From the IMG/VR virus record IMGVR_UViG_3300020409_000068, positions 1-25,941 of that record: a DNA stretch of 25,941 nucleotides; one strand, 5' to 3'. How positions within the stretch are numbered: the first letter of the stretch is position 1; every line of letters starts with the position of its first letter. Shown one piece after another: positions 1,577 through 24,136 of this stretch. Both the position numbers and the translations under genes were made by a program. Origin of the DNA: a virus. Its lineage: Duplodnaviria > Caudoviricetes. The notes under the pieces were generated by a model. The model searched no databases, was not told where the DNA came from, and saw only the letters and a list, made by a program, of their open reading frames with translations.

Positions 1577-3450
1577 TGTCATTTAACCAGTTTACAAACT
1601 TAGATTTCGCTGATCTAAGAAACCAAATTAAAGATTACCTCAGAGTAAACAGTGATTTTGCTGATTTTGACTTTGAAGGATCTAACTTTTCTACTCTAAT
1701 TGATCTTTTAGCGTACAATAGTTACATTACTGCTTACAATACCAACATGGCAGTCAATGAGTGCTTCCTTGACAGTGCTACATTGCGTGAAAATGTGGTT
1801 TCTCTTGCTAGAAACATTGGTTACGTTCCCAGATCGACAAGATCTGCTCAAGCTATTGTTGATTTTAGTGTAGACTTAGGTGATAATGACACAAAAATTG
1901 TAACTTTGAAGGCTGGACAGGTTGCCGTTGGTAATCAAACAGGAAGTAACTACATTTTTTCTATTCCAGATGACTTTGTTGCAACAACTGGAGCAAATAA
2001 TTTTGCAAATTTCAGTAGATTGAAAATTTATGAAGGAATTTACCTCCAAAAGCAATTCCAAATTGATTATTCTCAACCAAATCAGAGATTTATTCTTCCA
2101 AATGCGAATGTTGACACAACTTCTATCCGTGTTACGATTTCTTCCACCACAAATGAGACTTATACGCTCTACAATAACATTTTGAAGGTGGATTCGACCT
2201 CTAAATTGTTCCTAATTCAAGAAATTGAAGATGAACAATACGAAATTTTGTTTGGTGATGGAATTATTGGTAAAAAACCGCCAGCTGGGGGAGTAATTAC
2301 TGTAACTTATATTGTAACTAACGGAAAATTGGGAAATGGAGCTAAAAATTTCTCATTTGTTGGTATTTTGAAAGATGATACTGATAGAACAATCACTGAC
2401 GGCATCTCAATCCTCACAACTCAGCAAAAAGCTGATATGGGCGATAATATTGAAGATGTTAGTTCGATCAAATATCTAGCACCTCGTATATACTCGTCAC
2501 AATACCGTGCAGTGACCGCCAATGACTACACAGGTATAATTCCATTCGTATATCCTAACGTTGAATCAGTGACCGCCTATGGTGGAGAAGAGTTAGATCC
2601 ACCTGAGTATGGAAAAGTCTTTATTTCGATAAAACCGAAGAATGGTTCTTTCCTTTCACAAATCACAAAGGACGATATCTCTAGGCAACTTAAACAATAT
2701 TCAATTGCTGGTATCAAACCAGAAATTATTGACTTAAAATACTTGTATGTAGAATTAGATACTTCTGTTTACTATAATACAAACGCAACATCAGATGCCA
2801 CTGAATTACTTAGTTCTGTTACTAGAACATTGACAACATATTCTAACTCATCCGATATTAATGCTTTTGGTGGTAGATTTAAGTATAGTAAAATTGTAGG
2901 ATTGATTGATGACTCTGCTAGAGGTGTTACTTCCAACATAACAAGAGTAAAAATGAGAAGAGATATCACTCCTGAGTTAAATACTTTTGCAACTTATGAA
3001 CTTTGCTACGGAAATGCCTTTTACGAACAGCCAAATGGATACGGCGTACGATCTAGTGGATTTACAGTCAGTGGCATTGACGGAGTTTTATATTTGGGCG
3101 ATATTCCTACTTCTGGGACAACTGTTGGAAAATTAGTATTCTTCAAACTTGTAAACAATATCCCACTAATCGTTAAGAATGATGCTGGAACTGTAGATTA
3201 CCTTCACGGCGAGATTAATTTGGATGTGGTAAATATAACAGGTGCAATGTTGGAAAGTGGACTTATTGAAGTTGAAGCAATACCCGATTCCAACGACATC
3301 ATCGCTCTGAAAGATTTGTATTTACAATTAGATGTTTCAAACAGCACAGTTAATGCTTTACCTGATGTTGTTTCCTCTGGAGAAAATACATCTGCAACAT
3401 CATACGTCACAACTTCTAGTTACGCTAGCGAATCAATCTATACAAGATAA
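1576..3450 (+). CDS. gp6: Baseplate wedge subunit, T4 gp6-like
   Basis: 624 aa with LDF..L...IK.YL...SDF.DFDFEGSN.S.LIDLLAYN, FLDSATLRENVVSLARNIGYVPRS, FGDGIIGKKP, QYRAVTANDY and PPEYGKVFISIKP. Confidence 0.95.
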   Translation: MSFNQFTNLDFADLRNQIKDYLRVNSDFADFDFEGSNFSTLIDLLAYNSYITAYNTNMAVNECFLDSATLRENVVSLARNIGYVPRSTRSAQAIVDFSVDLGDNDTKIVTLKAGQVAVGNQTGSNYIFSIPDDFVATTGANNFANFSRLKIYEGIYLQKQFQIDYSQPNQRFILPNANVDTTSIRVTISSTTNETYTLYNNILKVDSTSKLFLIQEIEDEQYEILFGDGIIGKKPPAGGVITVTYIVTNGKLGNGAKNFSFVGILKDDTDRTITDGISILTTQQKADMGDNIEDVSSIKYLAPRIYSSQYRAVTANDYTGIIPFVYPNVESVTAYGGEELDPPEYGKVFISIKPKNGSFLSQITKDDISRQLKQYSIAGIKPEIIDLKYLYVELDTSVYYNTNATSDATELLSSVTRTLTTYSNSSDINAFGGRFKYSKIVGLIDDSARGVTSNITRVKMRRDITPELNTFATYELCYGNAFYEQPNGYGVRSSGFTVSGIDGVLYLGDIPTSGTTVGKLVFFKLVNNIPLIVKNDAGTVDYLHGEINLDVVNITGAMLESGLIEVEAIPDSNDIIALKDLYLQLDVSNSTVNALPDVVSSGENTSATSYVTTSSYASESIYTR

Positions 3451-9400: not shown

Positions 9401-12400
9401 TTCCTTCCGATGCCAGAAAGACATTTGGATCTTCTGATACTGATGTAACTGGTAGAAACAACATTACATTCAATAATACTGTAATTAGAAACGAACATGT
9501 CATAATTAAGACTGATGATACTAACTTTAGTTTCAATTTGAAGCAAAGACCATTAGAATCTCAAAAATTTGTTTCTAGAACTGGTGTAAGTACGATCACA
9601 TACAGTACAACTTCTCCAACTGCTAGAGGGCCTATCTTTAATACTAAGATAAACTTCCCAGGCAGAGGATACACCATATTACCAAGAGTTATTGGTTTTC
9701 AGAGCTCTCAAGGTAAAGATGCGATTGTAAAAGTATCTTCTCCAGATATTGGCAAGATTGATCTTATTGAAAGGATAAAAGATGGATTTGATTATCCGAC
9801 TGATCCTACTTTACTTCCATTCCTTAGTGTTCCTGCCATTGTTGAAGTAAGTGGTATTGCTAGGATGGATGAAATCCAAGTAACCGATGGAGGAAGAAGA
9901 TATAATCAACCACCCACACTTGCAGTTAGAGGAAATAGTAATGTGCAGATTGCAGCACATGTGGTAGGTGGATCTGTTGATAAAGTAGAAATAATCAAGA
10001 ACGCTTTTGAATTTAAAGAACCACTCAGTATCATTACAACTGATAACTCAAATGGTTATGATATAGACAATATCACTCATAGTGGAACTACTGTTACTGC
10101 TGAGTTGTTATTAGATGCACAATTTAATATACCAGTAACAACTGGATTCGCATCTACCGAAACCAAGTTACCTTTTGCTATAGGAGACAAGGTATTTGTT
10201 GAGGGTTGTAGATTGAAACCTGATTCAGTGCTTAATGGAGATGCAAACTTCAACTCTGCTGATTACGACTTCTCATTCTACACAGTTACAGGTGTTAATA
10301 CATCAAATGCAACTATTGAGTTTGATATGGCAAATGCACCTGGCATTTCAACAGTAACACTAGGAACATATGACGATGACTTTACATTAGGATCTATCGT
10401 AAACTTCAACGATATGGCGAAGTTTAATATGACTATCATTGAAGATGCTAAATTCTTATCTGGAGAAAAAGTAACATCTACAAGATTTGAAGGATTTGTA
10501 GCGGAGAATGGTTGGAATGTTAATATTGGTCAACTAAGACTTAGAGATACTTTAGGAACTTTAGCATCTGGTGATGTTTTATTTGGTGAAGTATCGAAAC
10601 TAAAAGGAGAGGTAAGAGATGTAAACAAATTTAGCATTGATACCACTCTTGGGGTTACTAGAGACAAGGTTTCTAAGAATGACATGAATATTGGTATTCT
10701 TAATGATTTCAGTCAAAGATTATCTGACAACTACTACTTCCAGAAGTTCTCTTATTCAATCAAGAGTAAATTGCCATATGATACTTGGAAAGAGTCTGTA
10801 AAATCTATTGTTCACCCATCAGGTTTCTTAGAGTTCTCTGATCTTATTGTAGAGAGTGATCCTATTGTAAATGCTCCTACTGTAGGGATTGCCAAGTCCA
10901 CCAACATGAAAGTTCAAGCAGTTGACACCAAAGTTGACTTGATATTGAATATTGATAGTGATATGTACATGGGTAAGAGAGATAATTTTGCCATAGTCAC
11001 CGAAGATGATCCTTTACCTGATGGATCGGTTCAAAGAATTTTCTTCCCAGAAGGCAGACCAATCAAGAGTTTCATTATGAACAAGACTAATAAGGTCTTG
11101 AATTTGGATGATATCTCCTCTGGTTTTAATGGCAGACATGATAGAACAGGAACTCTAGTTGGTAGTAAACAGTTCCAACTTTCTACTGGTGGAAAACCAG
11201 TATTCAAAAAATCATTTGCTGCAGCTGGAGTATTCACTGACGTAGATCTTTTACTTAACGTTATACAGATACAAAACCATGATTTCCAAACTGGTCAACC
11301 AGTTAGATTAAATACTCAGGGTGGTGATAGGATAAGTATTGCAACTACATCTCATACTACAGGGCCAAAGGACATTGTTATGTCTGTTGTAACATCTGGT
11401 ATTGGTGGAAGTTCAATGTATGAAAACGGATATAATGTTCAAATTCCAGGCCCCGTAACAGGAACTGCCGTAACAGAAAATCCTCCAGGCGCTCTATTCA
11501 GAATATATGGATTTGGCAATGCAGATGGAGGTGTTCCTGGCACAGGAGGAAGTGGTAGTGGTTCTATCTTCCAAGTTAAGTTTGACTTTGATCAAACTAC
11601 TGGTCAATGTATATCTACTGCTGTCACTCTAATCAACGGTGGTAGAGATTACATTGTGGGTGATAACGTAAGTATTGCTGGTACATATCTTGGTGGTGCC
11701 ACACCAGCAAACAACTTGACATTCCCTGTAACTAAAACAACAGGATCAAGAGTTGGAATAGAAACAACTTATACTAATATTCCTTCGACTAGTGATGGTG
11801 GTGGATCAGGAGCAACATTCAACGTAAGTAGAGATGGCAACTTAGACATCTCTGGTGTAAGTGTTGTTACTGGTGGAACTGGATATGCAACTACTAATAC
11901 AATCTCTATTGCAGGGACATATATTGGTGGAGTAACTCCAGGCGATAATATAACATTGACTCCTGTAGAATGTGGCGCAGACAAGATGCCTGATTTAATG
12001 TTTGTTCAGAAGGTAGATGATTTGAAATTCAGACTTGCTGGATTCTCTACATCATTACCATTTGATTTTACTTCATTAGGAACTGGTACACATGTGTTAT
12101 CAGTCACTGAGCCTAACAAACAGGCTTTAATTATGGTGGATAATATAATTCAAACTCCACTGACAAACAAGAGACTGGAAGTAACAGTATCTGAAACTGT
12201 TGGTGTCAATACAGAAACTATAACTATTAGTGCTGGAATTGGATCACTTGCTAAAGGTGATGTTCTTAAATTAGAGGATGAATTTGTTAAGGTTCAACAA
12301 ATAGGAGATGCTACATTTGTTAACGCAAGAACAGCAGAAATTGAAAATACTGTTGATAATAATTTCTTCTATGACACCAATAGATCAAACTCCACAGTTA

Positions 12401-12450
12401 TCAAAGTTTCCGATACTTCTGTGACTCTTGATGATAACCCTCCATATTAA
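3451..12450 (+). CDS. gp7: Giant baseplate wedge initiator, T4 gp7-like (N-terminal half), with many inserted beta-domains
   Basis: 2999 aa directly after gp6. It has the N-terminal QIPEFL..ESPLFV.FL.QYY, DFYMSKGT..SY..LFKLLY (from 4036), and DNYYFQKFSYSIKS...VHPSG (His codon at 10813), as in cyanophage gp7. It also carries G.GA..A...G.I..I.V...G.GY repeats. Confidence 0.85.
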   Translation: MTDIKRVKISHVIESQIPEFLVQESPLFVKFLDQYYQSQEHQSGLADLANNLPEYRKIGAFNNESLVPSTTLTLNAYAGDTSISVTSTTGWPDTYGLLKIDNEIITYTSKTSTEFLGCARGFSGIDQISREDAAEYLNFADTEAEVHLTGATVINLSNLFLQTFFTKFKTEFLPGFENRNFVSGTSVTNILTRAKDFYMSKGTDSSYQILFKLLYGEDIEILKPIENTIVPSDNVYFKTKHVLVENLFGGQPLETVGNFLYQDIAGIGTASASIYNVEYRPINQTDFYEISLDSTSFDGSFQVPGKTKALEETPTTAETLVVDSTVGFGQSGTLLVKPRVGENFITLRYTDKTINQFLGVTGITTSLVFGADILENKLAYAYAGFGQTSLLQFRLVNVIDEVDTSKSTNMQIGDNLKLLSFGKDLGDNPKFNNWIYNIPSSHDISNVSQVNVNTYRINIFDSCVFYIDEILIVKNDNGDSSEIRVKEIEYASTNVEQIYSNTIVVQATGGIPVNASVITKTVTKASHNSNYFTEVSNFPVGIQNSYLDKNEEFFYVTSAGLPNYPIFATDNKVFIKTSTVEATGSDGTPLFGGGFTYTIQSFDSTNVTLASPPPLPHNYVTGDKIYWDNTTNSGINTGVYFVTAINQTEFYLSFSGADVFAQKYIAVRTGTSGQFIYKSGWENKTLKNQKIIRKYPFNRTSNLFDDPNKRRINNRPIGLMANGVELFPPTVFDEQIFHGNITEIKVTNPGTDYDVISGPPVVINDAQGTGAIAHANIVGSFKEIKLVTPGIGYQEKPKITVEGGNGSGAVLESNLVRGAIVANFKADGSSVNTTAETVTFQERHNFEVGEGIVYDARGNTPIVNVVSGSTYYASVVDEKTIKLHNTPEDAKTGINTVNIGNISFGFHKFTSLEAKNTITKIYVKESGSGYSNRKVIVPARPVNGDVQSGISTSDDYILAYDHHFQNGEIVEYSSTGTVASGLSTTTQYAVKVIDTNKFKLCDVGVSTQRNLTNYNKNKTAVIRSLGSGKHTIKYPPIVVKIESLSAIGSTTVIQPEIDPLVLGSVDNVYLEEGGIGYGCTNIMDFHRRPNVGISTIVFQALLKPIIVGGSIVDVQILASGQGYREDSDINIYSPTGSFADIRPIITNNRITGVQILDGGVGYRSSDTTLDLRNRGKSAKFIANIKEWKINQVQKNENIISDEDSILTKPSTNPEYQLQTIGMYPPQKLRYQLGDNIDSGNLETPNAFHSPILGFAYDGNPIYGPYGYQNPDGGAIRRLQSGYILNTAILSGIRPPGFAFGYFVNDYIFDNSGDLDEFGGRYCVTPQFPDGTYAYFYSVDIDSSGVAKPKYPYLLGSKFKDTPIEENFVTFFNQDIDIISRNLTRNISPYYLTFGNSNYELIDDVRDALKQEFEITKTRSAGITSVTVFAKGDGYKIDDTLSLDNTGTNGSGTNIVVSEILGKQVDTVEIGVSTFVNTTLRLNKKEIIGVTTEPHDIIDGETVLISGINTSQFTEFNGTKKVSVVSRSVGLTTFLDNVTNTGVSTSIFVTDTTGFAPSDTIGIGTEKFIVTGVDEQFSRLFVNRENFVGAAMTHAAGTNNVILKPNKFSFPVGNSTVTRFTFENYITYFNPQQTVGVGSTGTHYTLPLTGLSTVQTIENRFVPQQRIYIKNHKFFTGQKLVYNMGIGGTSLVWAKVAAGATSGVGTEVLPDGDVYAINFEQDYIGIATLGFPTTGDAVWFYNVASNSGFAHSLATTFEKVNSKVEKFFGKVGVASDHGLETGDIIRIDALPKDTESTIIRYDPVLAKVTTKRVGFTYTSFSADLTEININDHDLQSGDKVVYYDNGNTIDGLINNETYFVLRENTDFIKLCKYKSDVFDSNPISISTVTTSSANNLSFLAKINPALTFTTGNTVTFDVSDQSLLDMRLDFFSDINFNNKLDVNGTEATGFNITRSGISGNVDATVTIKTDTDWPSKTFYNLTPVVPSDARKTFGSSDTDVTGRNNITFNNTVIRNEHVIIKTDDTNFSFNLKQRPLESQKFVSRTGVSTITYSTTSPTARGPIFNTKINFPGRGYTILPRVIGFQSSQGKDAIVKVSSPDIGKIDLIERIKDGFDYPTDPTLLPFLSVPAIVEVSGIARMDEIQVTDGGRRYNQPPTLAVRGNSNVQIAAHVVGGSVDKVEIIKNAFEFKEPLSIITTDNSNGYDIDNITHSGTTVTAELLLDAQFNIPVTTGFASTETKLPFAIGDKVFVEGCRLKPDSVLNGDANFNSADYDFSFYTVTGVNTSNATIEFDMANAPGISTVTLGTYDDDFTLGSIVNFNDMAKFNMTIIEDAKFLSGEKVTSTRFEGFVAENGWNVNIGQLRLRDTLGTLASGDVLFGEVSKLKGEVRDVNKFSIDTTLGVTRDKVSKNDMNIGILNDFSQRLSDNYYFQKFSYSIKSKLPYDTWKESVKSIVHPSGFLEFSDLIVESDPIVNAPTVGIAKSTNMKVQAVDTKVDLILNIDSDMYMGKRDNFAIVTEDDPLPDGSVQRIFFPEGRPIKSFIMNKTNKVLNLDDISSGFNGRHDRTGTLVGSKQFQLSTGGKPVFKKSFAAAGVFTDVDLLLNVIQIQNHDFQTGQPVRLNTQGGDRISIATTSHTTGPKDIVMSVVTSGIGGSSMYENGYNVQIPGPVTGTAVTENPPGALFRIYGFGNADGGVPGTGGSGSGSIFQVKFDFDQTTGQCISTAVTLINGGRDYIVGDNVSIAGTYLGGATPANNLTFPVTKTTGSRVGIETTYTNIPSTSDGGGSGATFNVSRDGNLDISGVSVVTGGTGYATTNTISIAGTYIGGVTPGDNITLTPVECGADKMPDLMFVQKVDDLKFRLAGFSTSLPFDFTSLGTGTHVLSVTEPNKQALIMVDNIIQTPLTNKRLEVTVSETVGVNTETITISAGIGSLAKGDVLKLEDEFVKVQQIGDATFVNARTAEIENTVDNNFFYDTNRSNSTVIKVSDTSVTLDDNPPY
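5590..7515 (+). other. Interrupted YHYH-family-like domain within gp7
   Basis: N-part PIGLMANGVELF (5590-5631). C-part HSPILGFAYDGNPIYGPYGY ... GDLDEFGGRYCVTPQFPDGTYAYF ... YPYLLG (7192-7515). About 520 aa of other repeats lie between, and there is no literal YHYH. Confidence 0.7.
11527..11967 (+). repeat. Tandem duplicated ~70-80 aa Gly-rich module in gp7
   Basis: GGSGSGSIFQV...GGRDY..GDNVSIAGTYLGGATPANNLTFPV versus GGGSGATFNV...GGTGY...NTISIAGTYIGGVTPGDNITLTPV. DNA similarity is visible around ATTGC.GG.ACATAT.TTGGTGG. Confidence 0.8.
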
Positions 12451-12481: not shown

Positions 12482-13504
12482 ATGGCTAAACAAGGGATTA
12501 GTACTGGTTCTGCTCCGAATGATGGGACGGGCGATACCCTATTGGCAGGGACTATTAAGATTAATGATAATTTTAACGAGATATACGATAAGTTCGGAGA
12601 CGGTACTAATCTTGTAAGTTTTGTTTCTTTTGCTAGCACTGCTGGGTATTCTACCAACTGTGGCATCGCATCAACATCTGTTCTTGCTGGTCTTGCAGCG
12701 AGTGTCACAAACAATATTGACATCAATACAAGTGGTGTTGTAACGACAAGTTATGCAGATATTGGTAAGATAACAATTCAACAGCCTGGTGCAATTACAG
12801 ATGGCCCTGTTGAAGTTGGTTTTGCTGCAACAATGTTCCGTATCAAAGCAGATGGTATGGTGGGCATTGGAACTTCACTTCCAACATCACAGATGGAGGT
12901 TGCATCTTTTTCTAATGAAAGGCCTTCAATATGGGCGATTGCAAAAGGTAATGGCCATGGGTTAAGAGTATCGGATCAAGACGTAACAGATAATAAGTCA
13001 TTTGTAGTAAGTAAAGAAGCTTATGTGGGTGTAGGTTCTACCGCTCCAACATGTAGATTGGATGTTCAAGGTGACGTTCTGGTGGGTGGTGCAACTACCT
13101 TGATGGATCAAGTAAATTTCAATTCTGATATTACTGAAAAAGTTGTAGGAAACTTTAGTGATGTTATGCAAGTAAGTGCAGGCGGCACATTTACTATTGA
13201 TGTATCACAAGGATCTGTAATATGTGGTGTTGCAACAACATCTATAACTTCATGGGCATTTACAAACGTAAGTGGACAGAATAGTAAAGCAACTACAGCA
13301 ACACTTATTATAAATGCAGGGTTAGGATATACCTATGGTGATCCTGTTACAGTTAACGGTGCTACAATCGCAACAGGAATTAGATGGGTAGGTGGCAACC
13401 CTCCACCATCTACATCAAACGAAGACATTCTAACGTTTAGTGTCATTCGCGATAGCACTGGAGTTACCAGAGTTTATTGTTCAAGTTCTATTAACATTAG
13501 TTGA
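12482..13504 (+). CDS. gp9: gp9/gp10-like baseplate tail-fibre connector fused to a short fibre and a C-terminal globular domain
   Basis: N-terminal MAKQGISTGSAPNDGTGDTLLAGTIKINDNFNEIY matches the T4 gp9/gp10 N-terminal motif. Two VGIGT..P...L.V fibre repeats follow (GMVGIGTSLPTSQMEV, AYVGVGSTAPTCRLDV). The C-terminal W.GG..P..T...DILTF domain is common in phage fibre/adaptor proteins. gp9 versus gp10 orthology cannot be resolved. Confidence 0.75.
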   Translation: MAKQGISTGSAPNDGTGDTLLAGTIKINDNFNEIYDKFGDGTNLVSFVSFASTAGYSTNCGIASTSVLAGLAASVTNNIDINTSGVVTTSYADIGKITIQQPGAITDGPVEVGFAATMFRIKADGMVGIGTSLPTSQMEVASFSNERPSIWAIAKGNGHGLRVSDQDVTDNKSFVVSKEAYVGVGSTAPTCRLDVQGDVLVGGATTLMDQVNFNSDITEKVVGNFSDVMQVSAGGTFTIDVSQGSVICGVATTSITSWAFTNVSGQNSKATTATLIINAGLGYTYGDPVTVNGATIATGIRWVGGNPPPSTSNEDILTFSVIRDSTGVTRVYCSSSINIS

Positions 13505-13517: not shown

Positions 13518-16500
13518 ATGCCAAGGACTACGCCTGGATCAGGAGCCCTCCTAAAACCAACTTTCGATTCATTCTATGGAGTTAGTTCCATAGAAGTTTT
13601 GAGTGGAGGAACAGGCTATGCAAAAACAGATCCACCTAAAATTGTAATTGAAGGAACATCCGATCCAACAACGGAAGGTGTTTTCTTTCCAGTTATAAGT
13701 GGTATTGGAACTATATCTGAAGTTATTATCTTCAAATCTGGATTGGGTTACTATCCAGTTTTTAGTACATCTTCATCTTCTGAAATTGCTGTAGAAAGAG
13801 GTGCTTTTGGTACACAGAAGGCTGGTCATGCGGCTGGTATTGCATACTCTGTATTTGCTGGTGATTATAATATTGTCGAAGATAATATATTCTTTATAGA
13901 TGCTCCATATGGAAAATCTGGCCCTGTAGGATTAGAAACAGGATCATCATTCTCTGGTAGACTATTTTCAAGAAAATTAGACCCATTTGATGAGAAAGAC
14001 AAAAACGTAATATTAGATGATATATCATTAGACTTCACAGGCGTTGCTGGAACTCAATTTACGCTTTCTGAAAATACAGGTGTTGTAACTGCACTTTACA
14101 ACAGCGTAAACACAGGTGTAGATGTAAATAACAATCCATTTATTCTAATCAATAATATTGTACAAACACCAGGCCTTGATTTTGAGATAGTAGATTCTGA
14201 CACAAATAAAATTAATTTTCTAAGTGGTGTTCCAAGAGCGGGAAGAATTGTAAAGGTTGGACTACAAACTGGATCTGGTTATTACTTACCAACAAAGGCA
14301 GCAGTAAGAGTTGGTGTTGGTTCTACTGGTAGTCTAGAACATATTCAGATAGAAGGTAAGGGGCAGGGATATAGATCAATACCCGAAATTTATGTAAGAT
14401 CGTCTCAAGGTTATGGTGCAAGTATAAGTGCAACTCTTGGTATCTCTACGACAGATAGTGTTGCTATATCGACTGTAACTTATAATCATATATCTGGTAT
14501 TGCCACATTCAATACAGGTGCAGTTTCTCATGGATTCGAGATTGATGATAGAGTTAGAATTACTGGTGCTGGATTTACATTCACTCCTGTATCTGCTGCA
14601 AGAAATATCAACACGTTTGGATATAATTACATCTCAGGTATTGCAACTATTGGTGTAACTGGTGGCCACTATATTGGTGTAGGAAAAAATCAAAGTAGAA
14701 GTTTATTACTTCAGGGTATTCAGGTAAGTGATGGTATATCCACATATACCCTCAGAGAGGACGCCTATCCAATTACAGAGGTGATTGATAGTCTTAACGT
14801 CTTAGTTAACTTAGGCATCGCCACACAACCTTTATCATACGAAGGGGGCGGAACTGTTCGTGCTGGTGTTGATACTGCCATCATGGAAGGTAGAAATGTA
14901 ATTGGTTTTGATATCCTAGGCATCACAACAAATACATTTGAAACTTTTGTTGGTATATCAACCTTTGAACATCAGTATGTTGGTGGTGGTGTAATAAACA
15001 GGGCGGAAGCAGGTATAATTACAAACTTTAGTATTGTGGAAGGAGGAACAGGTTTCTACAGACCTAGAGAAATATCTTTCCTAGATCAAACTCCTATAAA
15101 CGGAATTACAACTATTACTGCTTTTGGTAATGAGGTTGGATCAAGTATAAACATATCTGAATTAGATTATGATTCATTCTCTGGTGTTGCAACTATTCAT
15201 GCTGCGGCTTCTCATGGATTAACAACTTCAAGTGTAATAAAATTAGCTGGTGTTAAATTTAATACTAACGTTGGAGATATAACATTCCCATCAGATTCAC
15301 AAAAATATTATGGAGTTACTGGCATTTTAAGTGCAAAGAACTTTACTGTGAATATTGGTGCTGCCATGACAACCACTGGCATCCATACTGCACAATCTGG
15401 AATTGGATCATTTATAGAATTTGAAGGACATGGATTAGAAACCGATGATTTTGTTCAAACAACAGGAATTGCGGTAACATTTACAAGTGCTCCAGCAGTT
15501 CAAGTTGGTCATGTTGAGTATGATGAAAGATCTGGTATTGCAACTGTCACTACAAGAAAAAATCATAATCTTACAGAAGACGATTGTGTTGTTCTTTCTG
15601 GTATTGCATTTACTTGCGACTACGACCCTGCCCTAGGCGTTTCTAGTGCATTATATGATAATACAACTGGAGTTCTAACTGTCACCACTGCAGCACCTCA
15701 CGGCTACAAGGTAGGTAAAGATGTTATTCTAACTGGTCTTGCATTTACATGTGCTATAGATGGTGGTGCAAAAGATCATTACTATCCAAGAAGTAGATCA
15801 ACTGCATATGATACATCTCTCCCAATTACAGGTTATGCTGGAACTGCACTTGCCATAGATGTTGGCATATCTCGTGTCAAGAATCAATACGTTCATAGAT
15901 TTGAAGAGGCAATCACTGGTGCGTTGATATATGGTGGTGATTATCCTCATCAATTCCTCCGTGCAGAAGAAGGTGCATTATTAACTGGTGGGCCATATCT
16001 ACATGAGTTTCATAGTGCGACTGCAACATCAACATTTGCTGGTGGAGACTATCCGCACACATATGTCAGTTCTGATGAGAAAACAATCAAAGTTGGTGGT
16101 GATTATGCACACCAATTTGTAAGCGCAGACACTAACTCTGTACAAGTGGTTGGTGGATCACAAATTACGCCTACAGATGGAGACTATTCACCTAGCACTG
16201 GTTCTCTAATATTGACTGTTGCTAATCATGGTCTTACAGGCCCTACACAACATTCAATTACAACTGCAAACTATAATCCTCTTGCTGGTATCTTAACCGT
16301 GACTATTCCTAATCACGGATTTTCAAATGGCGATCAGGTTAGAATTGCAGATGAATCTATAGGTTGGAAGTGCTCATTAGACGCATTTACATCAACAAAA
16401 TATTATCCAAGATCCACAGATCCAATTAGTAATAGTTGGATTCCTATCAGTAACGTTTCTACAAACACTTTTGAGGTCTTTGCTGGTATTACTACTAGAG

Positions 16501-19500
16501 TAGATTATACAGTCTCTGGAGCAGATTACACACCTTCTGTGGGTGTGATGACAATGAGTATTGGAACTCATGATCTTAGAGTTGGGCAAAGTATCAAGTT
16601 TAGAGATAGTTCATTAGGATTTACTTGTGAGGCTGACCAAAATACTGCGATCAAGTATTATCCAAGATCAAAAGATCCAACTTATAACACTGCTGTTCCA
16701 ATCATAGGTGCGGCTGGAACTACTATTACTGTAAATGCTGGTGTATCAACCATAGTAAAATACAATATTAGATTTGCTGCCTACACTCCAGCGACAGGTA
16801 TTATGACTGTTTCTGTTGATAGGTTGCATAATTTTACGGCTGGTGAGACAATCAAATTTAAAAATGGATCTGTTGCTTTCAAATGTGAGCAAGACGGATT
16901 CCAAAGTAATCACTTCTATCCAAGACCAACTGACCCATATTACGATAAACCAGTAACTCTTGTTAGTGCTGCTGGTACTGAGTTTGTTGTAAATGTAGGT
17001 TCAACAGGTGGAGCAAATACATATCTATTCTTACCTAACCAAGGTGTTGCTGTAGAGGGTGTTATTGCTGGTGGTGACTATCCATATTCATTAGTTGGTG
17101 TTGGAACTGATGCTGTCATAACTGGTGGTGGAGACTATACTCCATACTGGTTCCAAAATGCAACTGCAAATGGAGTAGAAAGACCATCTCAACAAGTTCA
17201 AATTGCAGTGGGTTCATTGAACTTTAAGTGTGCTAAAGATGATTATGCAACTGTTCATGCATATCCTCGCCCTACAGATCCAGCGTACAACACAAATTTA
17301 GGTATTGTATCTGCCACAACTAACACATTTGAAGTCAGAGTTGGTGTTTCTACAATCGAAGAGCGTTCAATATCAACATCCACATATAACCCTGCAACAG
17401 GTGAATTGATAATGAATGTAGGTGCTGGACATTCGTATTATGATAATTCAGCTCATACAATTTCGACGGCAACGTATAATCCTAGTACTGGTGTACTAGA
17501 ACCAACCATTGCAAATCATGGTTTCGTTGCTGGTGAATATGTGAAGTTTGATCTAGAATCTATATCATTCAAATGTGATCAAGATGGATACACTGCAACT
17601 AAAGCATATCCAAGATACTCTGATCCATTCTTGAATGAGTGGTTGCCAATATACAACGTTGGCGTAAACACATTCTCTGTAAATGTTGGTGTATCTACTA
17701 TTGTAAATGCACATTGGTTCCAAAGTGCAACAACAGGTGGTCTTAAGAAAGCAAGAGATACTGTCGGAATCAACACTGCATCAATAATATTCACATGTGC
17801 CAGAGATAACTATGCAACAGAACACGCATATCCTCGTCCTGATGATCCAATAGGTGGCAATGTATCTGTTGGTATTGGTTCTACATCTGCCGATACTATA
17901 ACAATCAATGTCGGTGTATCAACAATAGTTAATTATAACATCTCAACTGCATCATATACCGCAAGTACAGGTATTATGACTGTGTTCTCCAATGTTCACG
18001 GATTCAATGGATCATATCAAAGAAATATAGATTTTGCATATTATGATGCCGTATCTGGTATTCTGACTGTGACATGTGCTAGTCATGGAATGGTTACTGG
18101 TAATAGAGTTCAAATTGCAAGAGATTCACTTAGATTCAGATGTAAGATGGATGGCAGAAAGTCCATCAAGAGTTATCCTAGAAGACACGACCCATCAGAT
18201 CAACAGTGGTTGTCAGTTACAACTGTAGACTTAGATAACTTTACAGTCAATGTGGGAACATCACCTCTAGTCTATCATACTCCCACAAGTGGATCATTCG
18301 ATCCTTTCACTGGGTTGATGACGATTGATATTGGCTCTCACACACTCAAGAAAGGAACTTCCGTCAAATTAAAAACAAATGGATTCAAATTTACCTGTGC
18401 CTTAGATAACCATGCGACATTCCACTATTACCCAAGGAAGTCTGGCATTAATGGCCCAGATCCTGCTTACAACACTGCTGTTAAAATTACTGCTACAACA
18501 GACACTACAATTACTCTGGATGTAGGAACATCATCCAATCAGACTGAACACATATTTGTATCTGCTGTAAACAATTCAGTTATTAGTGGTGGTGCATACG
18601 TTCATACATTTGAAAATGCAGAACTAGGTTCTCTACTAATAGCAAGAGATACAGTTGGTCTTGCAACAAACTCATACACATGGAGATGTTCTCAAGACAA
18701 CTATGCTACAGATCACACATATCCAAGAACAACTGACCCCATACATGATGTAGAAGTTGGTATTGTGACAACCACTCTTGATACATTTACTATCAATGTA
18801 GGTATTACATCTAGAGTTGTTTACAACGTAACTAATGCGACTTATGATGCAAACAGTGGATTGGCTACATTAACCACAGACTCGGCTCACGGATTGTCAA
18901 CTACAACTTCAGTAGGACTGATGACTGGTGGATTGGTTTACTCATGTTCTATGGATCAATATGCAACAGAACATCCTTATCCCAGAACCACAGATCCAGC
19001 ACACAATGCTGCTTTATATCCAACTGCCGTTACATCAAATAATCTTACTCTTAATGTTGGTGTTTCTACTAGAGTAGAATATAATATCAATCATGCCGAT
19101 TATCATGAATCTATTGGTATTATGACAGCTTTCTTACCAGTAGTTCATGGTATTACTACTGCTGCTGGTGTTGGTAGAAATGTCAAGTTAAAAACTGAGT
19201 CAATTTTATTCTCATGTTCTCAAGATAACTACACTACAAAACAATTCTATCCAAAGGGAGGAGATCCTTATTACAATGGTTCACTAATCACCAGAGTCAT
19301 TAATAACACAACCATTGAAACACAAGTAGGCCCATCTACCACACCTAGTTTCTATAACTCTGGTGGTACAATTCAAGGTGTCATACTTGCACCTAGACTT
19401 AATAATAATTCTCCTAGTGGAACTGACTTTGCTGCTGGTGGTACTTTTGTAGACAAGATTATTGATAGTAAAACATATGTTGTTAATGTTGGTATTTCAA

Positions 19501-22500
19501 CTGTAGATCATAACTATGCAAGAGCTGGACTTTCACAACAGGGTAAGAGAATTTCTTCCTCTATTGAGCAAGGATTCTCTGGATTTAATGTCATTGAAAA
19601 ACTAGACAATGCAAGATTCCGTATTGATGCTGGCATCACAACTCAAATTGCTTTGTATAAGAGGGGAGGTGAAATTACTAAACCAGTGTTTATTGATGTT
19701 GCAGAACCAGATCCATACTTCAATAGACCTCTTGAATATACATCAGGCACATCTGGTATCGGAACAAATTCTAAAGTTGATTTCAGAATCAATGTTGATG
19801 GAAACATTTCCGAGTTTAGTGTTCTTGAAGAAGGAACCGCATATAAAGTTGGTGATAGATTAACTGTTTCTGGTATTGCCACAGATCCAAGAGTGGGCAT
19901 AAACACCGAGTTCCAACTCATTGTAGAAGAACTTGAGAATGATACTTTCTCAGGATTCTATCCTGGCCAGTTTATACTCTTTGATGATATTGCTCCGTTC
20001 TTCAATGGAAAACGCAAGAAGTTTACTTTATCTGTAACAACTGCTGGAACAACTGAAATTTTAAGTCTTAAGACTCCAGCTGGTAGTGATATGGATATTA
20101 CAAATAATATCTTTATCTACATCAATGATATTCTACAAACTCCACAATCTTCTTACATATTCAAAGGTAGTAGAGTTATCTTTACTGAAGCTCCAAAAGA
20201 AAATTCTAAGTGTTCTGTATTCTACTTTAGAGGATCTAAGAGAGATGTTGAGACTGTAGAACCAGCACAGTCACTGAAACCTGGCGACGTTGTACAAATT
20301 AAAGAAAATAGATTTGTCAATGATGACATAGATCAGTTCAAGAGAACTGGTAAGAGAATAGTCGCTTCCGATCTTTTGGAAACATTTACATATAATAGTA
20401 TCGGAATCAATACTGATCAAAATGCAGATAGGCCTCTTGCATGGGAAAAACAAAGACATGATCAGATATTATCTGGTGTATTAATTTCTAAAGCAAGACC
20501 TAGTTTGAAGAGTAAAGTTCTTCCTACTACCAGATTAATTAAGAATGTTTCTAAAACTGATGATTCAATATATGTAAGTAATGCTTTCCCAGTATTCAAT
20601 GCTATTGATAAATTACTTCAATCTGAGAGAAATGTTCAGATCTTTGATGACACAGATGTATTACCAGGCATCATTACTTCTGTCGTTTCTACATCATCCA
20701 GTATTTCATCACTATCCATAGGATTTGGTGGCACAGGATATACTAACTTATCAAGTCCAAATGTAGCCATATCAAGTGCATTAATTAAACGCAAAGATCC
20801 AATATCTGCATGGGAGTTCGATCCTATCACAGGTATTACATCTGCTGTAGAATTTAAGGCACTGACAAAAGAGGAACCAATTATTGCTGTTGGTTCAAGT
20901 AGTTTCTACATGAATACTAAGAGTGGATCATTCTGGGAGAGGGGTAGAATTGGATTTGGTGGAACTGTAACATTTAATGGTGTCGGTGTAGGTAACAGTA
21001 ACACATCTACAGTCTACGCAATGGCTGTTGGTGATTATGGTTCTATGGCAAGAGCAGTTTCAATAGGTAACAGTTTGTCTACATGGACTGCAATAGATCT
21101 AAAAGAAGAAAGACAGATTCCAGCTATCAACCAAACCAGTACATTTGATAGTACATATCAGGGCAACTTCCAAGATGTTATTTGGGAAAACACTAGAAAT
21201 ACATGGGTTGCAGTTGGTGCTGGTGGATCTATCTTTACTGCGGTTGGCCTTACAACAGCAGAGGCTTTCAGTCAATTCTCAGGAACACTACAACAACTTA
21301 ATGCAGTATGTTATGGTCAGTCTGAATACATTGCAGTTGGTAATGGTGGTGTAATTCTTGCATCTAATGATGGAACAGGATGGGCAGACAAGACAAGTAA
21401 TACTGTCAATGACTTGAATGATATCATCTATGACGGTAATAAATTTATCGTTGTTGGTGACAGTGGAACTATTGGTATTTCAACTGACAAAAACTTCTGG
21501 CAACCTTGGAGTCAACAGTTACCAGCTGGAACACAACACCCTGCAACATTTGATTTTGCTAAGATTAAGTTTATTGATAATATCTACATTGGAATCAGTA
21601 CAGTTGGTGGATTGTATTATTCATTCGATTTGGCAAACTGGAACGAAAGGCCAATTAGCCATTCAAAAGAGATTCGTGATATTGTAGATACACCATTTGG
21701 TGATTTTGCAAGTCGCAGAGTTATTGCTGTTGGATCTGGAACCACTGTATTCTACGCAGATCCAGTAATCAACAGAGCAACTGCAACTGCATCTGTAACT
21801 GCTGGAGTAATTACATCTGTAACTGTAACTGATGGTGGATTTGGTTATGAGGTTGGTAGTAATCCACCAGTAATCGTTGAAACTGATAAGACTACAAAAG
21901 AAGATGTATTATCAATTGATGCAAAAGGTGACTTTGGTGATATTGTAGGAATAAATACATGGTTGCCAGGCTCTGGTGCTAGACTTCCACAATTGGCGTT
22001 TACATTGAAATCTCAATTCAATGATAACACTAATTTGGGTTATGGTTATTCTTCACTTAACTCTCTTGGAGTTAATTTTACAGGATTATCTAAAGGAGAT
22101 TACTTTACAATCTATGACAGTTCATTAGTTGTTGGACATGCCCTAACAGGTATTACAACTTCAAGTGGTTCTAATGTTGCTGTCGGTATGGTAACTGCTG
22201 GTGATTATCTTGGTGGCGTATTCAGAGTAGAACAAATCACAGCTGGTGATGCGATATCTGGATTAGCAACTGTAACATGTGCTTTCTTACCAGGCCCAAC
22301 ACCTTACGGAAACAACACTATTCAAGTGGGAGTTGCAACTACAGCAACCACTGATACCTTCTGGGGTAAATATAGTTGGGGTAAAATCTATGGATATCAG
22401 AACCGTGCTTCTGGTAATCCACAGGAATTTTTCGTCAATTCAAACAATGGTAATACTGGATTATCTACTGCTCCTGTAGTTTCCAGAAAGAAACCAATGA

Positions 22501-22505
22501 CTTAA
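13518..22505 (+). CDS. Giant virion structural protein, probably the C-terminal half of a split gp7; nested repeat array plus beta-propeller
   Basis: 2995 aa with GAGG at 13503-13506 upstream. It shares repeat types with gp7 (L/FDDI...F.L...I.IN.I.QTP; G.GY repeats) and lies immediately before gp8. It ends in WGKYSWGKI...GLSTAPVVSR, which I recall from cyanophage gp7 C-termini. Confidence 0.8.
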   Translation: MPRTTPGSGALLKPTFDSFYGVSSIEVLSGGTGYAKTDPPKIVIEGTSDPTTEGVFFPVISGIGTISEVIIFKSGLGYYPVFSTSSSSEIAVERGAFGTQKAGHAAGIAYSVFAGDYNIVEDNIFFIDAPYGKSGPVGLETGSSFSGRLFSRKLDPFDEKDKNVILDDISLDFTGVAGTQFTLSENTGVVTALYNSVNTGVDVNNNPFILINNIVQTPGLDFEIVDSDTNKINFLSGVPRAGRIVKVGLQTGSGYYLPTKAAVRVGVGSTGSLEHIQIEGKGQGYRSIPEIYVRSSQGYGASISATLGISTTDSVAISTVTYNHISGIATFNTGAVSHGFEIDDRVRITGAGFTFTPVSAARNINTFGYNYISGIATIGVTGGHYIGVGKNQSRSLLLQGIQVSDGISTYTLREDAYPITEVIDSLNVLVNLGIATQPLSYEGGGTVRAGVDTAIMEGRNVIGFDILGITTNTFETFVGISTFEHQYVGGGVINRAEAGIITNFSIVEGGTGFYRPREISFLDQTPINGITTITAFGNEVGSSINISELDYDSFSGVATIHAAASHGLTTSSVIKLAGVKFNTNVGDITFPSDSQKYYGVTGILSAKNFTVNIGAAMTTTGIHTAQSGIGSFIEFEGHGLETDDFVQTTGIAVTFTSAPAVQVGHVEYDERSGIATVTTRKNHNLTEDDCVVLSGIAFTCDYDPALGVSSALYDNTTGVLTVTTAAPHGYKVGKDVILTGLAFTCAIDGGAKDHYYPRSRSTAYDTSLPITGYAGTALAIDVGISRVKNQYVHRFEEAITGALIYGGDYPHQFLRAEEGALLTGGPYLHEFHSATATSTFAGGDYPHTYVSSDEKTIKVGGDYAHQFVSADTNSVQVVGGSQITPTDGDYSPSTGSLILTVANHGLTGPTQHSITTANYNPLAGILTVTIPNHGFSNGDQVRIADESIGWKCSLDAFTSTKYYPRSTDPISNSWIPISNVSTNTFEVFAGITTRVDYTVSGADYTPSVGVMTMSIGTHDLRVGQSIKFRDSSLGFTCEADQNTAIKYYPRSKDPTYNTAVPIIGAAGTTITVNAGVSTIVKYNIRFAAYTPATGIMTVSVDRLHNFTAGETIKFKNGSVAFKCEQDGFQSNHFYPRPTDPYYDKPVTLVSAAGTEFVVNVGSTGGANTYLFLPNQGVAVEGVIAGGDYPYSLVGVGTDAVITGGGDYTPYWFQNATANGVERPSQQVQIAVGSLNFKCAKDDYATVHAYPRPTDPAYNTNLGIVSATTNTFEVRVGVSTIEERSISTSTYNPATGELIMNVGAGHSYYDNSAHTISTATYNPSTGVLEPTIANHGFVAGEYVKFDLESISFKCDQDGYTATKAYPRYSDPFLNEWLPIYNVGVNTFSVNVGVSTIVNAHWFQSATTGGLKKARDTVGINTASIIFTCARDNYATEHAYPRPDDPIGGNVSVGIGSTSADTITINVGVSTIVNYNISTASYTASTGIMTVFSNVHGFNGSYQRNIDFAYYDAVSGILTVTCASHGMVTGNRVQIARDSLRFRCKMDGRKSIKSYPRRHDPSDQQWLSVTTVDLDNFTVNVGTSPLVYHTPTSGSFDPFTGLMTIDIGSHTLKKGTSVKLKTNGFKFTCALDNHATFHYYPRKSGINGPDPAYNTAVKITATTDTTITLDVGTSSNQTEHIFVSAVNNSVISGGAYVHTFENAELGSLLIARDTVGLATNSYTWRCSQDNYATDHTYPRTTDPIHDVEVGIVTTTLDTFTINVGITSRVVYNVTNATYDANSGLATLTTDSAHGLSTTTSVGLMTGGLVYSCSMDQYATEHPYPRTTDPAHNAALYPTAVTSNNLTLNVGVSTRVEYNINHADYHESIGIMTAFLPVVHGITTAAGVGRNVKLKTESILFSCSQDNYTTKQFYPKGGDPYYNGSLITRVINNTTIETQVGPSTTPSFYNSGGTIQGVILAPRLNNNSPSGTDFAAGGTFVDKIIDSKTYVVNVGISTVDHNYARAGLSQQGKRISSSIEQGFSGFNVIEKLDNARFRIDAGITTQIALYKRGGEITKPVFIDVAEPDPYFNRPLEYTSGTSGIGTNSKVDFRINVDGNISEFSVLEEGTAYKVGDRLTVSGIATDPRVGINTEFQLIVEELENDTFSGFYPGQFILFDDIAPFFNGKRKKFTLSVTTAGTTEILSLKTPAGSDMDITNNIFIYINDILQTPQSSYIFKGSRVIFTEAPKENSKCSVFYFRGSKRDVETVEPAQSLKPGDVVQIKENRFVNDDIDQFKRTGKRIVASDLLETFTYNSIGINTDQNADRPLAWEKQRHDQILSGVLISKARPSLKSKVLPTTRLIKNVSKTDDSIYVSNAFPVFNAIDKLLQSERNVQIFDDTDVLPGIITSVVSTSSSISSLSIGFGGTGYTNLSSPNVAISSALIKRKDPISAWEFDPITGITSAVEFKALTKEEPIIAVGSSSFYMNTKSGSFWERGRIGFGGTVTFNGVGVGNSNTSTVYAMAVGDYGSMARAVSIGNSLSTWTAIDLKEERQIPAINQTSTFDSTYQGNFQDVIWENTRNTWVAVGAGGSIFTAVGLTTAEAFSQFSGTLQQLNAVCYGQSEYIAVGNGGVILASNDGTGWADKTSNTVNDLNDIIYDGNKFIVVGDSGTIGISTDKNFWQPWSQQLPAGTQHPATFDFAKIKFIDNIYIGISTVGGLYYSFDLANWNERPISHSKEIRDIVDTPFGDFASRRVIAVGSGTTVFYADPVINRATATASVTAGVITSVTVTDGGFGYEVGSNPPVIVETDKTTKEDVLSIDAKGDFGDIVGINTWLPGSGARLPQLAFTLKSQFNDNTNLGYGYSSLNSLGVNFTGLSKGDYFTIYDSSLVVGHALTGITTSSGSNVAVGMVTAGDYLGGVFRVEQITAGDAISGLATVTCAFLPGPTPYGNNTIQVGVATTATTDTFWGKYSWGKIYGYQNRASGNPQEFFVNSNNGNTGLSTAPVVSRKKPMT
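14460..19680 (+). repeat. Array of ~17 nested ~90-100 aa beta-domain repeats (Y.P.TG.LT.T...HG...G..V.....F.C..D....H.YPR..DP......I.....TF.VNVG.S...H.F..A)
   Basis: The recurrent motifs YNP.TG, HG, F.C..D, YPR..DP and VNVGVST are read directly from the translation. The copies are diverged at DNA level. Confidence 0.9.
15885..16157 (+). repeat. Five tandem ~18-aa units (Y.H.F..A...A...GG)
   Basis: QYVHRFEEAITGALIYGG / DYPHQFLRAEEGALLTGG / PYLHEFHSATATSTFAGG / DYPHTYVSSDEKTIKVGG / DYAHQFVSADTNSVQVVGG. Confidence 0.9.
20796..21764 (+). other. Seven-bladed BNR/Ycf48-like beta-propeller domain inside the giant protein
   Basis: Blade motifs IIAVG, AMAVG, WVAVG, YIAVG, FIVVG, YIGIS and VIAVG, with Asp-box-like S.DG..W / STD..W / SFD...W turns. 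Confidence 0.8.
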
Positions 22506-22540: not shown

Positions 22541-24136
22541 ATGCCTGCCATAATATCCGAACAGTTTAGAATTTTAAATGCCGAGACTTTTGTAAAGAGT
22601 TTTGTCGGGGTCGGATCTACTGTTAACAAATACTATGCGTTCATGGGATTACCAAATTCCACAGAACCAAAGGCAGGCGGTACTGCCACATGGCCTACCG
22701 ACACCCCTGCACCTCTAGATGGATTTGAAGAAGAGTATTCTATCAAAGAATCTATCATTGCGATGAAGAAAGTGACTGACAAAGATGTTCGCAGACTTGT
22801 TAGGAAGGTAAAATGGGTTGCTGGTACTACCTATGAAATGTACCGACATGACTATAATATCTACAATTTAACACCAATAACTTCACAAGGTAGTTTGTAT
22901 GAAGCAAATTACTACATAGTGAATGAGGACTTGAAAGTTTACATTTGTCTCCAAAATGGATCAGACCCTGAGAACCCCAAGGGTAGGCCTTCATATGACC
23001 AACCCACATTTGTTGACCTTGAGCCAAGAGCAGCTGGCACTAGTGGCGATGGTTACGTTTGGAAATACCTTTATACGATTAAACCATCAGAAATCGTTAA
23101 ATTTGACTCTATTGAATACATACCTGTGCCCGAAAACTGGGGAAAGGAAGGCGAGACTATTGCAACAAAGGCTAACGCTATAGATGGAAAGATCGAAGTT
23201 GTGGTTGTTGATAATCGAGGCTCTAACTATCAACCAATCTCTACATCTTTTGCCAATGTTCCAATTCTCGGAGATGGATCAGGAGGAAAGGCAACAATTA
23301 CGGTTGATTCTTTCGGAAAGGTATCTGAAGTATTTGTTACTGACGGAGGAGAAGGATATACCCACGGATCAATACAGTTCTTCCCAGGCGCTCCTGGCTC
23401 TGAGTCTGGCGGTGTTCTTGCTAACCTTACCAATACTGGAATAGGAACTACATCTGTTGCAAACTTTAATGTTATAATTCCACCAAAAGGTGGCCACGGA
23501 TATGACATCTATAGAGAATTAGGTGCATATAGAGCATTATTATATTCTAGATTTGAAACATTAGAAACTAATCCCGATATCATTGAAGGTAATGACTTTG
23601 CTAGGGTTGGACTTATAAAAAATCCTACTGTGTTTGGTAGTAGTACAGAATTGCTAGACACTGCCATGGTGAGTGGACTTAAAGCAATCAAACTTGCTGG
23701 AGTTACAACAGCGACTACTTATGCAGTTGATTCAGAAATAACACAGACTGTTGGACTTGGATCTACCGCAATTGGATACGTTGCATCTTGGGATAAAGTT
23801 ACAGGAGTATTGAAGTATTATCAACCAATGGGTCTTGCTTCTAGTGAAACTGGATACAAGATAATTCCATTCACATCTAATCCTGATGCTGGATATGGAT
23901 TAACAATCACTGGATCATCAGTAGTTGGCTCTATATTATCAATTGATACCAATTACAACGGTGTTAGTACCTCAATAAATAATAGGACTTATCAATTAGG
24001 TATGAGTTTTAGTGCTGGTATATCATCAGCAGAATTTAATACCAAATCGGGTGAAATAATTTATATTGATAATCGGACTGCTATTCCTAGATCTGCAAGT
24101 CAGAAGGAAGACATCAAAATAGTACTGGAGTTCTAA
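22541..24136 (+). CDS. gp8: Baseplate wedge subunit, T4 gp8-like
   Basis: 531 aa with MPAII.EQFRILNA..F, W..GTTYEMYRHDY, VYICLQNG, DGYVWKYLYTI, IIPPKGGHG.DIY.ELGA and C-terminal GEIIYIDNR..I.RS.SQKEDIKIVLEF. Confidence 0.93.
   Translation: MPAIISEQFRILNAETFVKSFVGVGSTVNKYYAFMGLPNSTEPKAGGTATWPTDTPAPLDGFEEEYSIKESIIAMKKVTDKDVRRLVRKVKWVAGTTYEMYRHDYNIYNLTPITSQGSLYEANYYIVNEDLKVYICLQNGSDPENPKGRPSYDQPTFVDLEPRAAGTSGDGYVWKYLYTIKPSEIVKFDSIEYIPVPENWGKEGETIATKANAIDGKIEVVVVDNRGSNYQPISTSFANVPILGDGSGGKATITVDSFGKVSEVFVTDGGEGYTHGSIQFFPGAPGSESGGVLANLTNTGIGTTSVANFNVIIPPKGGHGYDIYRELGAYRALLYSRFETLETNPDIIEGNDFARVGLIKNPTVFGSSTELLDTAMVSGLKAIKLAGVTTATTYAVDSEITQTVGLGSTAIGYVASWDKVTGVLKYYQPMGLASSETGYKIIPFTSNPDAGYGLTITGSSVVGSILSIDTNYNGVSTSINNRTYQLGMSFSAGISSAEFNTKSGEIIYIDNRTAIPRSASQKEDIKIVLEF

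Follow-up and report, generated by a model that had tools for sequence, protein, structure and literature searches.

Recursive self-insertion of a protein domain is known from Si3 of the cyanobacterial RNA polymerase β′ subunit (RpoC2), in which eight SBHM repeats, not arranged in tandem, form a 150 Å arm and four of the eight are built from distant segments (PMC10895346). The recursion in Si3 reaches six levels, with bifurcating hosts, and the 2026 ECOD survey that describes it gives close termini for inserted domains (median 14.3 Å vs. 29.8 Å; PMC13114784). Here, we analyze a 25,941-nt stretch of DNA from a tailed virus (Caudoviricetes; IMG/VR record IMGVR_UViG_3300020409_000068, positions 1 to 25,941; the whole stretch is hereafter the window) and focus on one of its open reading frames (ORFs), 13518-22505, which encodes a 2995-aa gp7-like protein. 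Judged by its sequence, part of this protein consists of 17 copies of a ~104-residue domain inserted in each other's loops, to as many as nine levels.

In chaperone-usher pili, donor-strand complementation completes a domain lacking one strand with a strand from elsewhere, giving a chain of domains. FCCH, endosialidase, P22 I-domain, and reductase-type barrels are found as single inserts in larger hosts. Among phages, phiKp24, G7C, and CBA120 have branched host-facing tail appendages, which are formed by separate depolymerase chains docked on T4 gp10-like sites (10.1101/2022.03.15.484430), and the barrel of the K1F endosialidase binds polysialic acid, with loops that distinguish between hosts (10.1101/2025.10.06.680778). 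An FCCH-like match was noted and discounted in a siphophage tail tip (PMC13612043). A 6619-aa "baseplate wedge initiator" (gp7) of S-SZBM1 was detected in virions (PMC9146016); the passages on it there and in PMC3037559 give no structure.

Repeat unit and nesting of the pieces

The repeat unit is predicted to be a β-barrel of FCCH/endosialidase-like type, which we divide into an N hairpin ending in HG, an M1 strand ending in F-x-C, a YPR loop (Y), a second half (M2) ending in V-N-V-G, and a terminal strand (T or U). Segment hidden Markov models (HMMs) for N, M1, Y, M2, and T/U were built from the protein itself. The resulting tally is 17 N, 17 M2, and 17 terminal strands, or 51 tokens; shuffled controls gave one match in 20 and two matches in 30. 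A sequence-only reading of this DNA had proposed ~17 nested repeat domains at 14460..19680 (residues ~315-2056 of the ORF), and the tally bears this out. The HMMs also recovered the order it had described for the N-half, C-half, and terminal strand, with all pieces within ~10 nt of where it had placed them. The C hairpin was assigned by eye in this protein, and an HMM matches it in four orthologs (L036, P0243, P0246, and P0244); the token strings were curated by eye. Because the HMMs were seeded on the same protein, the map of it is not independent, and the independent evidence lies in how the HMMs behave on relatives. The barrel bodies share 26-52% identity. At the DNA level, similarity between repeats is just 60-87%, and the 20 repeat families listed (of 29) show no recent exact duplication.

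The 51-token string fails to parse as tandem units, and fails too with canonical nesting alone. It parses when nesting is combined with both N-M-T units and permuted T-N-M units, and none of 20,000 shuffles does so. In the resulting tree, A encloses B, and C encloses D and E. F, P, and Q are nested in E, M in P, K and N (with O inside N) in M, G and L in K, and H in G, with I inside H and J inside I. C lies at level 1 and J at level 9. The enclosure of B by A, of L by K, and of N and O by M, as well as the late closure of E and C in reverse order, had all been noticed before and were mapped here by HMM. The parse had also been likened to balanced parentheses, which holds once four strands missing from that account, t1-t4, are added. 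Otherwise G, K, M, and P would each lack a terminal strand and the parentheses would stay unbalanced; the four strands also raise the depth to nine. It is very probable that the pieces are last-in-first-out nested insertions, formed by a branched chain that runs out and back. By eye, A and C are themselves inserted in a second repeat family with a GG-x-GY motif (~14400-14460, ~15003-15070, and ~19686-19860), and through this family the nesting likely extends one level further out.

Predicted barrels and natural variants

We modeled residues 703-1856 (F to P) as a monomer with AlphaFold2 (model number + 702 = residue). The model is all-beta, with t1-t4 as strands, a mean predicted local distance difference test score (pLDDT) of 75.8, and a predicted template modeling score (pTM) of 0.38. 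In it, t1 and P form one barrel (residues 808-1847; 9fmv, 76 residues onto a 77-residue barrel, root-mean-square deviation [rmsd] 3.7, Z 5.6). Single solved barrels also align over F, H, I, J, L, and N, and over O in a weak row (spans in Table 1). A second, truncated model covered residues 703-1470, without M and P. Its expected outcome was set beforehand: last-in-first-out pairing would orphan t1 and t2, and the reverse order would orphan t3 and t4. The sole long stretch with pLDDT <50 in the truncated model is model 104-141, i.e. t1 and t2, which has no strands there (pLDDT 46, 32, 37, and 37 in the t1/t2 block vs. 71, 73, 70, and 75 in the full model), and the F strand, t3, and t4 remain strands. 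Six rows of the truncated model place t4 with both G halves in one barrel (residues 861-1278), and the pairing of t2 with M and of t3 with K is suggested by elimination.

In these models, each unit is thus predicted to be an FCCH/endosialidase-like barrel, canonical (N-M-T) or permuted (T-N-M), and barrels are predicted to be completed across 300-1,000 residues, last-in-first-out. The halves were not seen to fold each with its sequence neighbor. The out-and-back, branched chain of the sequence-only reading gains support from predicted barrels made of pieces up to ~1,000 residues apart, from the truncation outcome, and from orthologs with empty or expanded sites. Its picture of a stalk with side branches stands for L on K and N-O on M; the stalk P-M-K-G is made of permuted barrels, and H-I-J extends the stalk tip instead of branching off.

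The best fold matches of the predicted barrels are the endosialidase β-barrels 4hiz (Z 8.1, rmsd 2.2 over 78) and 1v0e (Z 7.5), 6dc6 (Z 7.7), 4p22 (Z 7.5), E1 FCCH domains (Z 7.2-7.7), and 2m5s (Z 5.5), with phage neck and tail parts and reductase-type barrels also among the matches. The predicted L and J superpose on solved barrels with Z 7.2-8.1 and rmsd 1.9-2.9 over 77-81 residues. Identity is 11-20%, and 11-13% to the endosialidase barrel. PF16190 (FCCH of ubiquitin E1) matches weakly (E 0.016, 15.7 bits vs. a curated cut-off of 29.5) and is among the precomputed tags of some homologs; the single barrels F and L have no Pfam match. Foldseek with the whole model found nothing clear in the PDB (best probability 0.44, TM score ≤0.08), and its top named matches in BFVD are cyanophage proteins. 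A Kelch-type chain, 8pjs, matched barrel L by phmmer (E 9e-10, summed over ~10-bit stretches) and was rejected, given that barrels are what the models show. That both permutations exist suggests that the termini of the barrel lie close together.

Relatives offer a view of nesting that does not depend on the models. Orthologs carry 5, 12, 17, 23, or 24 barrels, always balanced. The order and balance of the pieces, as well as the gain or loss of whole barrels, can be followed directly along these sequences. Among 120 homologs listed of 901 found (7,999 candidates), 116 are 2995-3002 aa long, with a single one of 2920 aa and another three of 3631-3738 aa. All ~3000-aa orthologs mapped, S-SSM7 and the divergent P0244 included, share the 17-barrel layout. 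The four architectures tested (5, 12, 17, and 23 barrels) all parse, and a tandem-only grammar fails on all four, although 101 of 20,000 shuffles of the 5-barrel string parse too. Each added barrel costs 103.6-105.7 aa. In Sf-FS3_86 and P0247 (2492 aa), five strands lead and five bodies are plain and strandless; Sf-FS3 has 12 barrels, with a stalk of five that does not branch. In P0119-P0121, the YPR loops of M and P contain further inserts, of two strands followed by two bodies and of three followed by three, and in P0119 and P0121 also one lone T-N-M unit.

Short forms (1731-1752 aa) were found at four of the 41 IMG/VR loci (L035-L038; 18 of the 41 were translated) and in P0242, P0243, and P0246. 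In L036, L038, P0243, and P0246, E is uninterrupted and the whole F-Q block is absent, and C still wraps D and E; gp8 follows the short form in L036 and L038. The E of these four orthologs (L036:33-5288, L038:5574-10829, P0243, and P0246) has a Q′-like second half, which is a clue to the origin or loss of the insert. Either the short form arose as a deletion hybrid or, perhaps, E′ is the later copy; the scores are ambiguous as to which half closed E ancestrally. A C-terminal flank tree (21 rows, quick method) did not tell gain from loss, because the outgroups sit on long branches. As to how the tree grew, the hosts G, K, and M resemble one another (44-51), the guests H, L, and N do likewise (32-44), and the strands of F, t1, t3, and t4 are a similar series. 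These similarities fit separate duplication of strand rows and of whole host-guest cassettes. The idea that each guest is a tandem copy of a host half was not supported in general, as the E hairpin is nearest D and the F hairpin nearest A.

One Cys at the M1 end is invariant in 33 of 33 orthologs in each of 13 barrels (E to Q; window 15615-19217), and E carries a second invariant Cys. The Cys may form disulfides, bind metal, or be structural. A Cys/Asp/His/His metal site that links body and strand is a possible candidate; by eye, the co-occurrence of His was not strict.

Genomic setting and spread of the barrel

The window is a T4-like cyanophage baseplate gene block, in which ORF 13518-22505 sits between gp6 and gp8 (Table 1). 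Its product shares 77.8% identity along its full length with SSM7_103 from Synechococcus phage S-SSM7, which is annotated as a second gp7, lies in the same gene order, and has a like 17-barrel map. In P-SSM2 and S-SCSM2R, the homologous sequence forms the distal portion of a single gp7 coding sequence (~5,200 aa) between gp6 and gp8. The product matches phrog_2885 (E 4e-156) at profile positions 3333-3954, and the upstream ORF 3451-12450 covers profile positions 8-2548. The wedge domain PF23786 has a weak match in the upstream ORF (E 3e-4) and none in the 13518-22505 product at E 0.1 (Pfam). On these profile and homology matches, we class the product as the C-terminal portion of a gp7-like protein that is split in two, and not as a complete gp7. 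The records of SSM7_103 and of the P-SSM2 and S-SCSM2R gp7 carry only the gp7 label, and nesting is annotated in none of them. All 436 matching phage records bear the names Synechococcus, Prochlorococcus, Cyanophage, or Marine virus.

Table 1. Genes of the window and pieces of the nested barrels in ORF 13518-22505 (sequence parse; model spans in numbering of the AlphaFold2 models)
Feature	Position (nt)	Strand	Remarks
gp25	1160-1576		
gp6	1576-3450		
gp7-like ORF, 2999 aa	3451-12450		
gp9/10-like ORF	12482-13504		
Host ORF of barrel region, 2995 aa, second gp7-like protein	13518-22505	+	Matches C-terminal part of single gp7 of P-SSM2, S-SCSM2R
Barrel A, interrupted after M1 by B	14460-15002	+	Residues 315-495; sequence parse
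Barrel B, complete, inside A	14601-14864	+	Residues 362-449; sequence parse
C N-hairpin, depth 1	15072-15128	+	By eye; HMM match in four orthologs
Barrel D, complete, inside C	15147-15422	+	Segment HMMs, parse
C, HG motif and M1 strand	15426-15485	+	By eye
E, N and M1, depth 2; 12-barrel block F-Q inserted directly after	15498-15626	+	Segment HMMs; uninterrupted in 1752-aa orthologs
Barrel F with own terminal strand, depth 3	15633-15938	+	One barrel at model 1-105
Leading strands t1-t4, putative outgoing leg of stalk	15939-16157	+	Residues 808-880; predicted t1 to P, t2 to M, t3 to K, t4 to G
G N-hairpin, permuted barrel, depth 6	16164-16235	+	HMM, model
H body, depth 7, closed by third strand of triplet	16251-16496	+	Model span 207-524
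I body, depth 8, closed by second strand of triplet	16503-16751	+	Model span 292-502
J body, depth 9, closed by first strand of triplet	16758-17006	+	Model span 375-483
Three terminal strands, order J, I, H	17013-17180	+	HMM, model
G second half	17181-17354	+	Model span 159-576
K N-hairpin, permuted barrel, depth 5	17364-17438	+	Segment HMMs
Barrel L, complete, inside K, depth 6	17451-17750	+	Model span 607-712; Z 8.1 to phi92 endosialidase barrel
K second half	17751-17924	+	Segment HMMs
M N-hairpin, permuted barrel, depth 4	17931-18008	+	Segment HMMs
N body, depth 5, closed by strand 18594-18641	18021-18266	+	Model span 796-1008
Barrel O with strand, inside N, depth 6	18273-18593	+	Model span 880-990, one weak row, Z 3.4
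Terminal strand of N	18594-18641	+	HMM, model
M second half	18642-18812	+	Segment HMMs
P body, permuted barrel, depth 3, completed by t1 (predicted)	18819-19070	+	Model span 106-1145
Barrel Q, complete, depth 3	19074-19376	+	Segment HMMs
E second half and terminal strand (E′)	19377-19544	+	Segment HMMs
C second half and terminal strand (C′)	19545-19685	+	Segment HMMs; directly after E in short orthologs
gp8	22541-24136		

The upstream ORF 3451-12450 has seven H-x-x-x-x-G-D/E-x-V motifs (at 5299, 5980, 6334, 7930, 8776, 8941, and 11278), which look like a related barrel subfamily. By eye, the motif at 8776 is interrupted by that at 8941, and the motif at 11278 by a long insert; the segment HMMs have no match in this ORF, which also contains a YHYH domain. 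Downstream of the nested region, window 20835-21767 has repeats of V-A-V-G-x-x-G type with no Pfam match, which resemble those of a β-propeller. Near the start of the window (55-591), an ORF conserved in cyanophages (phrog_1574) weakly matches a glycosyltransferase (phrog_34859, E 5e-6).

Beyond the orthologs, a profile-free search of 50% clusters yielded 553 proteins at E ≤0.001. Among the 150 of these that were listed, 135 have at least two hairpins, including 67 with back-to-back hairpins, 46 with back-to-back strands, and 44 with an interrupted YPR loop. The barrel is un-nested in P0261, P0262, and P0273. P0248 (4764 aa) has a similar nested block several times over, and the P0160, P0204, and P0215 groups are other virion-type proteins with nested blocks of the same barrels; P0215 also has CBM5/12.

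Possible function, rival explanations, and known systems

A barrel with adjacent ends would lengthen an arm only by insertion into its far loop. With the barrel ends together, the tree would stack by loop insertion, with two chain crossings at each joint. The four strands that run out would form the outgoing leg, to be captured in reverse order by the bodies G, K, M, and P. C would carry D and E; E would carry F, Q, and the stalk P-M-K-G, from which M would bear N-O, K would bear L, and G would bear H-I-J. We estimate that the longest path, nine barrels, would measure ~25-35 nm if straight. Because such a tree returns to its origin, it could not space the N- and C-terminal parts of the protein, and because its tips carry only barrels, any function would lie in barrel surfaces. 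The step from there to host-surface binding is a weak one: it is favored because of the K1F barrel binding site, the matches of the repeat to tail-fiber PHROGs, and the company of the same barrels with CBM5/12 in another protein. We put the chance that the region is a host-binding baseplate appendage, which would bind the host surface through many weak barrel sites, at slightly better than even, and multivalent capture of host surface glycans during adsorption would be its likely mode of action.

The sequence-only reading went further, to a rigid, antenna-like appendage. In the full version, the trees would be stiff, branched, length-tunable host-capture antennae, i.e. a multivalent glycan-binding array whose barrel number and layout (5 to 24) tune adsorption or host range. 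We regard this version as possible but doubtful; rigidity, baseplate position, and host binding are what we infer. Strands and strandless bodies would then duplicate separately and re-pair last-in-first-out.

Several points weigh against reading the region as a nested, host-binding arm. All structural support is prediction, from alignments of 52 rows of close relatives (65-97% identity), and two of the five models of the first job were poor (57.6 and 51.5). Domain spans are the first and last aligned residues of single solved barrels in the fold search; the t1-P span is carried by one row, and spans for K and M were not seen among the rows. A-E, Q, and the E′ and C′ barrels, including the closure of C and E, rest on the parse. 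At pTM 0.38 and 0.40, domain orientations are not predicted, and neither are overall shape and stiffness. In the short-form E, the score of the second half is 82.5 with Q′ vs. 33 with E′, the first half being nearest E (111), which makes the short form an imperfect empty site; and since the short forms are without 12 barrels, the tree is not needed for the baseplate. Divergence among the 33 orthologs has a weak tip bias (G-N 72.7 and J 76.2 vs. K′ 95.1 and E′ 95.6; A+B 75.2, C/D 73.2). A Z of 7-8 at 11-20% identity may reflect no more than a common arrangement, and function does not follow from a shared fold. The literature yielded neither virion proteomics nor imaging for the 13518-22505 protein.

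The main rival keeps the nested tree and makes it a structural scaffold, whose barrels dock virion proteins (fibers, enzymes) or brace the baseplate with no host contact. We consider this unlikely. It draws on fold matches to phage structural proteins (FCWL1 head-tail interface, Z 7.0; N4 tail, Z 6.2; P22 coat I-domain, Z 5.5), on the gp9/10-like gene just upstream, and on stalk halves that are strongly conserved (K′ and E′ as above; M′, 89.7), but a barrel number of 5 to 24 in one gene context is hard to fit to a fixed docking stoichiometry, and many giant virion proteins that are unrelated to this one also contain these barrels.

An improbable alternative is that the nesting is real and the product a floppy or compact cluster of little selected function, grown by tolerated duplications. 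The low pTM values, the short forms, and the undecided flank tree would all suit such a cluster; the constancy of the 17-barrel layout and length in the ~3000-aa orthologs and the invariant Cys of 13 barrels speak against it. Distant pieces might also complement each other between chains, in an oligomer or by strand swapping around the six-fold baseplate. Our models are of monomers only, and symmetric swapping would keep strand and body counts equal as well; yet the monomer satisfies every strand, last-in-first-out, and each insert in the relatives is balanced in itself, even where it amounts to one T-N-M domain, so that we find this very improbable. Ordinary tandem or locally permuted repeats, with long-range pairing as a parsing artefact, are largely refuted: the self-seeded HMMs, the curation by eye, and the un-nested barrels elsewhere leave some room for them, but the tandem-only grammar fails on all four architectures, predicted barrels span 300-1,000 residues, the truncation came out as predicted, and natural empty sites exist.

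If the region is indeed a nested arm, it has consequences beyond this phage. Most fibers and adhesins add domains end to end, and stacking by insertion would be a second natural route to long protein arms. It would account in part for the giant size and variability of cyanophage gp7 proteins and for their invisibility to Pfam. The series of 5, 12, 17, 23, and 24 barrels, which includes the cultured S-SSM7 and Sf-FS3, opens two testable questions: how folding proceeds when the partner of a strand follows as many as ~1,000 residues later, and whether tree size affects adsorption to Synechococcus. The permuted, strand-completed barrel could also serve as a module for designing branched single-chain scaffolds. 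Were the antenna-like version true, its nine levels would go beyond the six-level complex example given in the 2026 ECOD survey (PMC13114784).

Nested barrels in a virion protein were the subject of no paper in the literature searched (mostly open-access main texts); within that coverage, recursive self-insertion is known from Si3, and no paper on it in a virion was found. The known systems each share part of what we propose for the barrel tree. FCCH (PF16190), endosialidase, P22 I-domain, and reductase barrels match the predicted barrels in fold, at 11-20% identity and below the Pfam cut-off, and differ in that the barrels here insert into themselves and occur in two permutations. Chaperone-usher pili complement strands between subunits, in an Ig fold; here, complementation is predicted within one chain, in a barrel, and last-in-first-out. 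Unlike phiKp24-type fibers, the branching here is encoded in a single chain, and no β-helix enzyme was seen in the models, which show barrels. The closest likeness is to Si3, in which copies of one small beta domain are also inserted in each other and the chain folds back into an elongated arm. SBHM proteins were not among the 50 fold-search rows listed per search. Si3 lies in the trigger loop of RNA polymerase, whereas the host here is a phage gp7-like virion protein, with an FCCH-like barrel in 17 copies (5-24 in orthologs), nine levels by parse, a mixture of canonical and circularly permuted copies, and a putative outgoing leg of the stalk that consists of single strands in a row. Altogether, the barrel tree is not Si3, but works like Si3 in its architecture.

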